A stretch of DNA of 64,000 nt from assembly GCF_058153355.1 (NCBI RefSeq), contig NZ_CM177019.1; one strand, 5' to 3'. This document shows, piece by piece, positions 49,501-52,500 of the stretch. How positions within the stretch are numbered: position 1 is the first letter of the stretch; every line of letters begins with the position of its first letter. Made by a program: the position numbers.

Positions 49501-52500
49501 AATCTATCTCCCCCACCTTAACTTTGGGGGAGCTGCCGATTAACGTGCCGCTGGGCTAAAAAGCGCAGAATAATCCGTATTGCAGATTCGCTGTACCGCC
49601 GGGTGCTGAATCATCCGCTCAGCAAAAATAGCATGGTACTCTTCCATCACATTTTCTACGCGACCAATTTCCACGACAGTTTTATCGGCATAAAAGTCAT
49701 ATGCATAAAGCGTTGGAGCAACGAAGATTGCATTGTGCATCGCACCAAAAGCTTTCATTAATGCGGCATCATCAAACTCGCCAAGGATTTCTACGTTTAA
49801 TCCCTGGGAGTTAAACCAGTTAAGCAATTTGCGTCCCAACATTGAACGCCGTCCAGGAATCAAAAGCCGCCGTTCTTCCAGACAAGCCGGGAATGGTTTT
49901 TCCGGTGGTGGATTTGTACACCAGAAGCTCACGCCACATTCGCCAATTCTCACGGAGAACAGGCCTTCCTGCTGCGTAGAATCTATCGGGCAATCGGAAA
50001 TGATCATATCCAGTTTATGCTGACTTAATTGCTCCAGCAGCATTTCGTGGGTGGATTCGAAGCAGCGAAGATGAATCGGCTCACCTTCTACCACTGCGGC
50101 GTTCAGTACGCTACTGACCAGGCGTTTGGAAAGTGCATCAGCCACGCCAACGTCAAACAATAAATTGGACTCTTTGCGATAGTTCACGATATCCAGCATT
50201 TCCTGGCTTAAGGTAAACATTTTATCGGCATAGCGATAGACCAGCTCTCCCAGTTCGCTGGGTTCGAGACCACGTCCCTTGCGCTTAAATAGTTTACCTT
50301 GCAGGCGCTCTTCCAGCGCCCGGATCTGCCCGGTAATGGTTTGTGGTGTTAAATAAAGCGCCTCCGCTGCGCCAACCACGGAACCTTCTTTATAGACATG
50401 CCAGAAGTAATACAAGTGGTTGTAATTGATATGAGACATGCTCATTTCTCTCCCTGATAATAATGAAAAGGGAGCCGTTTATGGCTCCCCGGTAAACCGT
50501 CCTGTCACACTGATGGACGTAAACGAACGCGTAACCAGCTGTATCCAATTACCGCCGAAGAGATAGAACCGACCAGGATACCGAGTTTCGCCCAGTTAAT
50601 CAGTTCTGGATCTACGCTACCAAAGGCCAGGCTGGCAATAAAGATAGACATAGTAAAACCGATACCGCACAGGATCCCCACCGCCATAATTTGCTGATAA
50701 GTCGTTCCCTCAGGCAGATGCGCCAGTTTCAAACGCAGCGCCAACCAGCAGAACAGACTAATCCCCAGCGGTTTGCCAATCAGCAAGCCAGCGATGATCC
50801 CCAATGGCAGAATGGAGGTCAAGCCATCCAGCGTGACGCCTTGCAGTGAAACGCCAGCATTAGCAAATGCAAACAGCGGCAAAATCAGATATGCCACCCA
50901 CGGGTGCAACACATGCTCCAGTCGCTTCGCTGGAGAACGCCCATGCTTCTCTTTCAAAGGAATAAAGAAGCCGACAATTACCCCCGCCAGTGTTGCGTGA
51001 ACCCCCGATTTCAACACCGCAGTCCACAACACCACACCAACCAGAATATAAACGCCCGTGCGGCGTACACCACACAGATTCAGTACCGCGAGTACGGCAA
51101 TTGCAACGGCCGCGACGCCAAGAGAGGCCATCGATAAGTCATTAGTGTAGAACAAAGCGATGATAATGATGGCCCCAAGATCGTCGATAATAGCCAGCGC
51201 CATCAAAAAGATCTTCAGCGCTAACGGAACACGACTTCCCAACAGCGCCAGCACACCAAGCGCAAATGCAATATCTGTCGCCGCCGGAATAGCCCACCCT
51301 TCGCGGGTAATCGGATCGGCATAGTTAAAGGCAAGATAGAGTAATGCCGGAACAATCATCCCACCAATAGCGGCGATAACTGGAAATGCGGCCTGCCGTA
51401 AGCTGGCTAGCGATCCTTGCATCAGTTCACGTTTAACTTCCAGACCGACTAACAGGAAAAATACCGCCATCAGCGCGTCATTTATCCATAACAGCATGTT
51501 TTTGTTGATTTCGAGTGAACCAACCCGGAGCTGAACCGGCGTCTCCAGAAAGTCGTGATACCATCCACTGGTTGCGCCGCTATTGGCCATAATCATCGCC
51601 AGGATAGCGGCAATGATAAGAATAATGCCTCCCGAGGCATCACTGCTAAAGAATCGATGCAGATGTTTCACTTTTTATTTCTCTTTCAGGTGAATAGATC
51701 GTTTTTACTATTTTATCCCGCACAAATCATCGTTAAAATCAGATTATAGTGTAGGAATAATTCGTTTTTTACGAGCCATTGAAGGATTTGCGTCATCAGT
51801 GATGAGATGAGTTTTTGACGGCTGTAAGAATAATGCCTCCCGAGGCATCACTGCTAAAGAATCGATGCAGATGTTTCACTTTTTATTTCTCTTTCAGGTG
51901 AATAGATCGTTTTTACTATTTTATCCCGCACAAATCATCGTTAAAATCAGATTATAGTGTAGGAATAATTCGTTTTTTACGAGCCATTGAAGGATTTGCG
52001 TCATCAGTGATGAGATGAGTTTTTGACGGCTGTAAGGCAGTATGACTTTCCGTGAGACAGATGCTGGCCAACGTGGGATATTTAACGCGGGTTAACATCG
52101 TTGTCAGAGCCGCATGGGTGAGCTGTTGCTACACCCCGGTATTTCCACCACGGAGGCCAGCATGAACAACAATAACACATTGTACGTCGGGTTAGATGTT
52201 CACAAAGAATCGATTACTGTCGCTTATGCTATCAATTCAGAACCTGTTGAACTGATGGGTAAAATTGGCACATCACCTACTGATATTCAGAATCTTTGTA
52301 AACGTCTCAGGTCAAAGTCATCGCAGGTCAGTATCGTTTATGAAGCGGGGCCCTGTGGTTATGGACTTTATCGTCGGCTGGTGAAATCCGGTTTTGACTG
52401 CATGGTCTGCGCCCCCTCACTTATCCCGAAAAAACCGGGGGAGCGGGTTAAAACCGATCGCCGTGATGCCATCAGACTTGTGCGTTCACTGCGTGCAGGA

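Follow-up and report, generated by a model that had tools for sequence, protein, structure and literature searches.

A perfect 208-bp tandem duplication at the start of nhaA abuts an ISSso6 junction and may be a by-product of the element's own recombinase

Recombinases of the IS110 family are under development as programmable genome-editing tools, and little is on record about what side reactions they have in real genomes. That a mobile element can rearrange the DNA around it is familiar from insertion sequences with DDE transposases, such as IS1 and IS10, which give IS-adjacent deletions and duplications, and short tandem duplications also arise by microhomology, the product being a perfect head-to-tail repeat with a few bases common at the joint. 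A bridge RNA has reportedly been described for IS621, by Durrant et al. and by Hiraizumi et al., both in 2024. The donor junctions of such systems need flanking target bases (PMC11187229), and a recent preprint (10.1101/2025.10.25.684509) shows that IS110 enzymes pass their LT-RD and LD-RT junctions straight on to a new target. Here we describe a locus at which one resident IS110-family element, ISSso6, adjoins a perfect duplication of the start of nhaA, and we compare it with these precedents.

The window, by which we mean the whole stretch of 64,000 nucleotides analysed (RefSeq assembly GCF_058153355.1, contig NZ_CM177019.1), holds two copies of a 208-nt unit, copy 1 at 51617-51824 and copy 2 at 51825-52032, which are 100% identical by both a repeat search and Tandem Repeats Finder. 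The latter program (period 208, 2.0 copies, score 840) extends the array to 52036, because a TAAG there starts a third 208-bp copy, and a self-BLAST of the entire window returned no repeat besides this pair. Copy 1 is contiguous with full-length nhaA on the minus strand (50505-51671), an intact gene for a Na+/H+ antiporter of 388 aa with a GTG start, as given by the gene call and by RefSeq annotation of homologous loci; copy 2 adjoins the IS. Each copy comprises nucleotides 1-55 of nhaA (51671-51617 in copy 1) and 153 bp of upstream DNA, and the second nhaA start is truncated to 27 codons (51796-51879, minus strand), of which 18 belong to nhaA and nine are read-through codons before a stop. 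A perfect TATAAT hexamer in the nhaA sense, a candidate -10 box read from the sequence, lies 72-77 nt upstream of each GTG (51743-51748, with a second copy at 51951-51956, minus strand); a scan for consensus promoters gave no prediction on the strand of nhaA. The unit also contains a GC-rich palindrome, ATGCCTC-CC-GAGGCAT (51625-51640 and again 51833-51848), flagged as a stem.

Three plus-strand TAAG motifs mark out the structure. The one in nhaA codons 17-18 (51617-51620), which we call the pseudo-target and which would supply a new left half and AG core, is the only motif of its kind within the 208-bp unit and, on this strand, the closest one leftward of the IS junction. Another lies at the novel joint (51825-51828), where GACGGCTGTAAG runs into AATAATGCC, so that the exact composition of the joint is the left target flank, the AG core and then the sequence to the right of the TAAG of codons 17-18; the joint can be written GTA-AG/AATA, and thus falls at the core dinucleotide, with an authentic IS-chromosome junction as one partner. 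The last (52033-52036, core dinucleotide AG at 52035-52036) is the cognate left target half of ISSso6. The k-mer diagnostic of the duplication junction is GACGGCTGTAAGAATAATGCC. A sequence-only reading of this DNA had claimed a perfect tandem duplication at 51617-52036, made up of 55 nt of nhaA and 153 bp of upstream DNA, joined at TAAG and creating a 27-codon truncated start, and all of this was borne out: the duplication is confirmed as real. Any NhaR/H-NS-controlled promoter elements would, on that reading, be doubled as well; the candidate TATAAT hexamer is what the analysis shows in both copies.

The element beside it occupies 52037-53556 on the plus strand, a length of 1520 bp (1518 bp plus one copy of the AG core) over which it is 99.8-100% identical to copies whose CDS RefSeq names "IS110-like element ISSso6 family transposase". 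Its inverted repeats are perfect, 14 bp long and set 4 nt inside either end (left, TATGACTTTCCGTG, 52041-52054; partner, 53539-53552), and its transposase of 375 aa (52162-53289, plus strand) has a DEDD_Tnp_IS110 domain (PF01548, residues 9-153, E = 6.7e-11) and a Transposase_20 domain (PF02371, residues 223-297, E = 1.6e-23). Both domains, the near-identity to named copies, an insertion site ambiguous by 2 bp only, a strict and oriented target, the subterminal position of the repeats and a long non-coding stretch after tnp all place it in the IS110 family, with an IS1111-like organisation. This 3' non-coding region of 267 nt is predicted to fold well (z = -4.7), and its structured core (53305-53495, plus strand) is a candidate seekRNA or bridge RNA with the guide-like segments AGCGCTT (53350-53356), GTAAG (53387-53391), ATATCAG (53444-53450) and TACTGC (53470-53475). 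The top-strand match lies 5' of the bottom-strand match, and AGCGCTT and GTAAG stand in the expected order, although these are short matches that co-occur in 1.4% of shuffles. An Rfam scan of 51000-54000 at E <= 1 gave no family match, so the ISSso6 non-coding RNA is not a curated family. By self-BLAST the 64-kb window has only this one ISSso6.

The insertion, 153 bp upstream of nhaA, is at GTAAG/CGCT; its core is the 2-bp AG, and CGCTG, the cognate right target half, lies at 53557-53561 (plus strand). In E. coli 2013C-4282, where the site is empty, GACGGCTGTAAG is followed directly by CGCTGACATG, from which the occupied site differs with only the 2-bp AG ambiguity, and this comparison sets the IS boundary between 52036 and 52037. 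The duplication therefore abuts ISSso6 directly, at 0 bp, since the inverted repeats are subterminal. The sequence-only reading had it ending 4 bp before the inverted repeat; the repeat does begin 4 bp further on, and what had to be amended is the meaning of that gap, for the end of the duplication is the end of the IS itself. Among the 15 distinct ISSso6 sites collected, every left flank ended in TAAG and 14 in GTAAG, and the right flanks mostly started CG(C/T); the sole ATAAG site is that between nupG and speC (locus L018), and the presence of ISSso6 there shows that an ATAAG half-site, such as that in nhaA, is usable. The four bases that could be taken for plain microhomology are thus, judged by these flanks, the conserved left half of the ISSso6 target. 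Left and right flanks have also been reshuffled between ISSso6 copies, for example among loci L032, L035 and L037 and between L024 and L041.

The same kind of scar was found at other copies of the element. L022 has a perfect 299-bp duplication of its left flank that ends at the left junction and is joined at AAG, and duplications at the right end measure 205 bp (L022 and four EIEC plasmids), 161 bp (L023 and FDAARGOS_944) and 106 bp (L058, with about 10 bp of homology), all three joined at the AG core. A joint at the core dinucleotide is accordingly seen at the left end of L022 and at the right ends of L022 and L042, of L023 and L041, and of L058, and, the window included, five separate tandem duplications have one endpoint at the AG core of an ISSso6 terminus. 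Independent assemblies contain the 205-bp and 161-bp cases, and the two sites of the 161-bp case have only AG in common, which argues against plain slippage. Left-flank examples number just two, each in one lineage. The left-flank pseudo-site of L022 adjoins a terminator hairpin and the palindrome at 51625-51640 begins 5 nt past the pseudo-target core, and in both left-flank cases a hairpin stands 4-5 nt from the crossover. The earlier suggestion of a mechanistic link to an IS110-family element thus holds: the boundary is the IS junction, TAAG is the left target half-site and the pattern recurs at other copies.

NhaA itself is too common a protein for tracing relatives (73,241 blocks), and they were traced instead through two lineage-specific neighbours, an ORF of 414 aa and one of 141 aa. 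The sister isolate SRR8656992 (locus L043) has the IS and no duplication; it is identical to the window over 7,252 bp (44577-51828) and then runs straight into the IS. Seven other genomes likewise have the IS at the same site without the duplication, and the converse, a duplication lacking the IS, occurs in none of 5,426 complete E. coli genomes. These comparisons show that the duplication arose after IS insertion, within the same clone, and they bear out the earlier claim of a very recent event. The junction is rare: a megablast of a 56-mer across it against the 5,426 genomes gave no match, nor did an exact scan of JGI metagenome contigs with a 34-nt junction sequence, and exact-protein look-ups of the small ORFs that would mark the junction or a separate repeat unitig (35 aa and 43 aa) found none on record. 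The predicted reciprocal deletion joint, which is not expected in the same lineage, was looked for without a match. Its sole partial match is another ISSso6 copy with a GGTAAG flank.

Short reads of the closest sample, SRR31441161, supply a further view of the junction, read-level support being taken from where a contig ends. Its nhaA contig in the Logan assembly (locus L045) has no mismatches to the window and ends at 51646, the position that had been predicted before the look-up as the break for a k = 31 de Bruijn graph containing the junction; it is 206 bp shorter than the corresponding contig of SRR8656992, which runs through. A contig end at any one codon has a background of about 30-60 of the 73,241 blocks. 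Codon 10 of nhaA, where 47 other blocks end, was considered as a hotspot for contig ends and rejected, the controls at codon 13 (29 blocks) and codon 8 (58 blocks) placing it at background.

The duplication is very recent, and we think it somewhat probable that the ISSso6 recombinase produced it in a side reaction at the element's own left junction. ISSso6, an element with a DEDD/serine recombinase of the IS110 family, first inserted at its cognate GTA-AG-CGCT, 153 bp upstream of nhaA. A complex of recombinase and RNA, reading the GTAAG flank at the left IS junction, may then have paired LT-RD with a half-matching pseudo-target on the sister chromatid, namely the nearest half-match, ATA-AG, beyond which lie an A-rich stretch and a hairpin, with strand exchange at the AG core. 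Of the two reciprocal products, the 208-bp tandem duplication with its LT-nRT joint would be the one retained here, and a 208-bp deletion fusing the IS to nhaA codon 18 would have been lost with the sister. By an equivalent route, a 208-nt circle with the same joint could have been excised and reintegrated by homologous recombination. What speaks against the recombinase is that the putative pseudo-targets match the left half alone, as ATAAG in the window and CAAAG in L022, and their right halves, AATA and AAAA, are unlike CGYT; half-site recombination by ISSso6 is something we infer from the direct-transfer reaction of other family members in one preprint. The hairpin close to the crossover in both left-flank cases could equally indicate a replication-based step.

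Replication slippage, or microhomology-mediated template switching, is the alternative that such a step brings to mind: a nascent strand that had passed the nhaA hairpin and CTTA would re-anneal at the TAAG of the IS junction and recopy 208 bp, the part of the IS being limited to a nick, or to a bound protein at which the fork stalls, and involving no strand-transfer reaction. The four bases common at the joint, the GC-rich hairpin 4-5 nt from the crossover in both left-flank duplications, the roughly 10 bp of homology in the 106-bp case of L058 and the fact that the IS-junction TAAG is the nearest one behind the pseudo-site all speak for slippage. Against it stand the five separate duplications, each with an endpoint at the AG core of ISSso6, and the 161-bp case; in L022, too, the AAG that was used is the one at the IS junction, although several others are nearer to the pseudo-site. 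Moreover, the nhaA duplication is absent from the 5,426 genomes that have both TAAGs, mostly without the IS, and where microhomology acting independently of an IS would leave endpoints unrelated to a mobile element, here the endpoint is the IS junction, and recurrently so. We regard slippage as improbable, while granting it a real share of the likelihood. If chance slippage between the two TAAGs had instead come first, with ISSso6 inserting afterwards, the element would have landed exactly where it lies, as only the right-hand TAAG would then be followed by CGCT and be a complete target; yet the closest relative, with an identical background, has the IS without the duplication, no genome has the reverse, and the other junction-anchored duplications would be left unexplained, all of which makes this order of events highly improbable.

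That the source genome has one copy, and that the second was made in assembly, polishing or gap closure at the IS boundary, was a natural suspicion to raise, given perfectly identical copies, one boundary at a multi-copy repeat where contigs break, a junction present in no other public assembly searched and a sister isolate without it. An artefact is nevertheless very unlikely, because the SRR31441161 contig breaks where a junction-containing graph should and the sister contig runs through, and this alternative, which the sequence-only reading had left standing, is weakened accordingly. An arbitrary boundary would, besides, show a 4-bp microhomology with a probability of about 1/256, and here those four bases are the ISSso6 target motif, and the scar class is confirmed by the independent assemblies of the 205-bp and 161-bp cases. 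Least credible of all, to our minds, is that the repeat is a large target-site duplication or was left by homologous recombination between two IS copies. Insertion sequences have commonly rearranged these genomes, as the reshuffled flanks illustrate, but a target-site duplication would not put both copies to the left of the IS with the cognate CGCTG as right flank, and after recombination of two IS copies one would expect an IS to separate the repeats, in a window that has a single ISSso6.

Whatever its origin, the event has left the proximal nhaA control region and leader in tandem, the first copy then leading to a 27-codon dead-end ORF, and ISSso6 severs everything further upstream from the duplicated region. 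Regulation under Na+ or alkaline stress could change in this EIEC-like lineage, and the effect may be neutral. More tentatively, and with somewhat less confidence than we have in the recombinase origin of this one duplication, we suggest that ISSso6, and possibly RNA-guided IS110 recombinases generally, leave a class of undescribed scars, perfect core-anchored tandem duplications of 100-300 bp made when a resident IS junction exchanges strands with a pseudo-target that lies close by on the sister chromatid and matches by half; such sites would often be hairpin-adjacent or lie within the element's own guide-coding DNA. If true, these scars would be natural in vivo evidence for direct transfer from junction to target, half-site recognition would be enough for occasional strand exchange, and the resident junction, besides the excised circle, would be a reactive substrate in vivo. 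Bridge-type recombinases could then cause off-target structural variation at half-sites, of which bacterial genome collections would be a cheap catalogue.

Like the RNA-guided IS110/IS1111 systems, ISSso6 has a DEDD plus Transposase_20 enzyme, subterminal inverted repeats, a strict short target, a 2-nt core common to its ends and target and no target duplication, and like the IS1111-type seekRNAs (PMC11187229) it has a structured RNA candidate 3' of tnp in which the putative top-strand match is 5' of the bottom-strand one. Canonical IS110/IS1111 reactions are excision to a circle and insertion into a full target, whereas the outcome here is a tandem duplication of flanking host DNA and the partners are a resident IS junction and a half-site. 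General microhomology duplications differ from the present one, whose common bases are the IS target motif, which ends at the IS junction and which has counterparts at other ISSso6 copies. The events at IS1 and IS10 are similar in that they, too, rearrange host DNA between an IS end, which fixes one endpoint, and a site nearby, but they come from DDE transposition with target-site duplications, involve neither a sequence-specific core nor a guide RNA, and give deletions or inversions more usually than perfect short tandem duplications. ISPpu9 (PMC12288879) offers an IS110-family enzyme that uses alternative end-like sites to give products besides the canonical element, although these are circles of modular build, in which repeated boxes delimit tnp and an sRNA gene, and not duplications of host flanks. 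The nearest likeness is to direct transfer (bioRxiv 10.1101/2025.10.25.684509), in which the core is where a resident LT-RD junction recombines directly with a new target, while LD-RT does so with a new right target. That work used full programmed targets for CazIS110-1 and IS621, was aimed at transposition, and in the sections consulted describes no sister-chromatid tandem duplication, half-site pseudo-target or natural genomic scar. On our analysis, the LT-nRT joints of the window and L022 and the LD-nRT joints of L022, L023, L041, L042 and L058 are best read as the products, or reciprocal products, of direct-transfer reactions.

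A perfect tandem duplication of the nhaA start and its upstream DNA had been claimed by the sequence-only reading, and two repeat-finding tools agree on it: identical copies of a 208-nt unit occupy 51617-51824 and 51825-52032, four extra bases, TAAG, prolong the array to 52036, and a self-BLAST over the entire window returned no other repeat. From the position of nhaA (50505-51671, minus strand, GTG start), each unit holds nt 1-55 of the gene and 153 bp of upstream DNA, and the extra start opens the truncated 27-codon ORF (51796-51879, minus strand) that had been proposed. In the sense of nhaA, the locus runs from the IS, with its tnp divergent, through a 153-bp control region, 18 codons, 9 read-through codons and a stop, to a further 153-bp control region and the intact nhaA. 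Both control copies carry, as read from the sequence, a perfect TATAAT that lies 72-77 nt before the GTG; the promoters described for nhaA are P1, which is NhaR-dependent and Na+-induced, and P2, a sigma-S promoter (PMC6307784). Downstream of nhaR, the fimbrial operon (45700-49500) is decayed, its usher broken into ORFs of 115 and 405 aa and the 319-aa gene that follows into ORFs of 99 and 141 aa, the latter differing by six substitutions from its form in L029, the closest other lineage. Between the IS and a sulfatase gene lies a 414/426-aa ORF (53651-54931, minus strand), named in RefSeq ‘IS1/IS1595 family N-terminal zinc-binding domain-containing protein’, for which no Pfam match was recorded and whose exact variant was found by exact-protein look-up in only five contigs.

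The adjoining element, ISSso6 (52037-53556, 1520 bp), is 99.8-100% identical over its 1520 bp to copies whose RefSeq CDS is named ‘IS110-like element ISSso6 family transposase’. Its protein of 375 aa has the domains DEDD_Tnp_IS110 and Transposase_20, its inverted repeats are perfect, 14 bp long and each four bases inward from the element end, and 3' of tnp there is a non-coding region of 267 nt, with a fold z of -4.7 against shuffles and no match to an Rfam family. The right end carries an outward-facing, perfect TTGACA (53533-53538), which in a circle junction would lie ~17-20 nt from the left-end CAGTAT/TATGAC, a putative junction promoter in the usual IS110-type arrangement. In FDAARGOS_944 (3428232-3429358) the transposase of the nhaA-adjacent copy is frameshifted, and in strain C311 a mutated core, ATATCGG, replaces ATATCAG at the right end.

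E. coli 2013C-4282 has the gene context of the window with the IS absent, and comparison of this empty site (...GACGGCTGTAAG/CGCTGACATG) with the occupied one reveals a 2-bp AG ambiguity, as expected of an IS110-type core dinucleotide, and no target-site duplication. The boundary thus placed means that the duplication stops at the IS junction itself; the endpoint had rightly been tied to the element, but the ‘4 bp before the inverted repeat’ is that junction, since the repeats start four bases inside. Among 15 distinct ISSso6 insertion sites compiled from assemblies of E. coli, EIEC-type and others, all left flanks end in TAAG (14 of the 15 in GTAAG), and the right flanks mostly start with CG(C/T). 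Several to many copies sit exactly at the GTAAG/CG (GTAAGCG) terminus of IS66-family elements (right flanks of loci L019, L020, L024, L025, L037, L038, L042 and L058), so ISSso6 seemingly targets the termini of a different IS family, comparable to the use of Tn21-type inverted repeats by IS4321 and IS5075. The right junction reads RE-AG/CCTGAACC in L025 and RE-AG/CGTACAG/CCTGAACC in L019 and L020; the two forms differ by 7 bp lying between a pair of AG dinucleotides, through either a minor deletion beside the IS or a variant IS66 end. ISSso6 is found 153 bp upstream of nhaA (52033-52036/53557) in three or more flank haplotypes and gene contexts, with a hokC side, an IS66 side or a 414-aa ORF side (the window, L001, L002, L024, L031 and L041), which makes this position a natural target that is hit repeatedly; its right flank was swapped through later rearrangement in L024 and L041.

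The novel joint in the window (...GACGGCTGTAAG/AATAATGCC) consists of the left target flank and core followed by the DNA downstream of a TAAG in nhaA codons 17-18 (51617-51620), which, being the sole TAAG in the 208-bp unit, is the nearest same-strand left half-site of ISSso6. Its fifth base is A instead of G, matching the genuine nupG/speC insertion site, and a GC-rich palindrome (51625-51640) begins five bases past the crossover. A systematic check of all fetched ISSso6 loci found four further kinds of event, each joined where a genuine IS junction has its AG core. Where the IS lies inside speC (L022), the left flank bears a perfect 299-bp tandem duplication (2278-2875) that ends at the left IS junction, its joint reading ...GAATATAAG/AAAAACGGG and its pseudo-site, CAAAG, lying 4-5 nt ahead of the nupG/speC terminator hairpin; the identical insertion in L018 and L026 has no such duplication. 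The others are tandem duplications of the right end of the IS, covering its last 205 bp in L022 and four EIEC plasmids (L022, 4394-4600; L042, 3529-3735), its last 161 bp in L023 (4394-4556) and in the nhaA copy of FDAARGOS_944 (L041, 3305-3467), and its last 106 bp in L058 (3100-3206). The 205-bp form, on chromosome and EIEC plasmids, has either arisen more than once or travels as an extended version of the IS. Inside the element, the partner sites of the right-end events are at or beside guide-like non-coding segments (AGCGCTT, 53350; immediately past GTAAG, 53387-53391; ATATCAG-CG, 53444), DNA that may resemble the recognition sequence of the enzyme-RNA complex.

The junction 56-mer had no match among 5,426 complete E. 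coli genomes, nor had the junction in JGI metagenome contigs, and the genomes carrying the IS at the nhaA site have one copy of the 208-bp unit. Exact-protein look-ups of lineage-specific neighbour genes located close relatives of the window. In the sister isolate SRR8656992, which on the right side shows 2 SNPs over 4.2 kb relative to the window, the nhaA-side contig equals window 44577-51828 exactly and then passes directly into the IS left end, i.e., the IS is present and the unit single. The closest sample, SRR31441161, has 0 mismatches on the left and right sides. Logan contigs are the output of de Bruijn graph assembly at k=31, and before the SRR31441161 look-up it was predicted that a junction in the reads would stop the nhaA-side contig at 51646 and give an NhaA product starting at residue 10; a look-up of that truncated product retrieved an SRR31441161 contig with 0 mismatches, ending at 51646 and 206 bp shorter than that of SRR8656992. 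Contig ends at any single codon occur in only ~30-60 of 73,241 blocks. Together with the IS-only state of SRR8656992, this end indicates that the short reads of the closest sample support the duplication, as judged from the contig end position, that it postdates the IS insertion, and that it is very young, one of the two options given by the sequence-only reading. Contigs from unrelated samples (L044, L046-L053) also stop at the equivalent of 51644-51646, in nhaA codon 9-10, one of them a 200-kb NCBI contig; these ends were taken as background because neighbouring codons show similar end counts, a reading that does not account for the long contigs among them.

The assembly artefact that the sequence-only reading had allowed for is improbable, given that the SRR31441161 contig ends where junction-containing reads predict and that an arbitrary boundary would show a 4-bp match with a chance of 1/256. 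Still less credible is a duplication that preceded the IS, which the sister isolate contradicts, and the anatomy of the locus leaves hardly any room for a target-site duplication or for IS copies having recombined with each other. Replication slippage at TAAG, with help from the hairpin and possibly a nick made by the recombinase, fits both the microhomology and the hairpins, but we consider it unlikely: it leaves the anchoring of five independent events at ISSso6 cores unexplained, L022 skipped nearer AAG triplets, and the 161-bp case, whose two sites have just the 2 bp AG in common, is hard to square with it. With moderate confidence, the most likely origin is an exchange in which the resident IS junction would recombine with a ‘target’ a few hundred bases off on the sister chromatid, leaving one chromatid with a tandem duplication and the other with the matching deletion. 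The suspected link to the IS110-family element holds in that the endpoint is the IS junction, the joint is the target motif and similar scars recur at other ISSso6 copies; catalysis would presumably be by the recombinase, the partner probably a sister chromatid, and the hairpin may have a role.

Neither the IS110-family element nor its target specificity is new, and tandem duplication is an established mutation class. A literature search for IS110, bridge RNA and tandem duplication together found no such paper, and in the literature searched we found no description of an IS110-type element that repeatedly leaves tandem duplications of its flanks or ends in natural genomes. IS1111-type elements require flanking target bases at donor junctions (PMC11187229), and in their seekRNA the top-strand match is 5' of the bottom-strand match, the order also seen for the candidate guide segments of the ISSso6 non-coding region. 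The junction transfer needed here has been reported both in vitro and in vivo in other members of the family. According to a 2025 preprint (10.1101/2025.10.25.684509), IS110 enzymes can move LT-RD and LD-RT junctions, LT-RD being the left IS junction, straight onto a new target, with the exchange at the core. The window joint, left target flank to new right target flank (LT-nRT), corresponds to the reciprocal product of LT-RD direct transfer, and the joints at the right end (LD-nRT) to what the LD-RT reaction yields.
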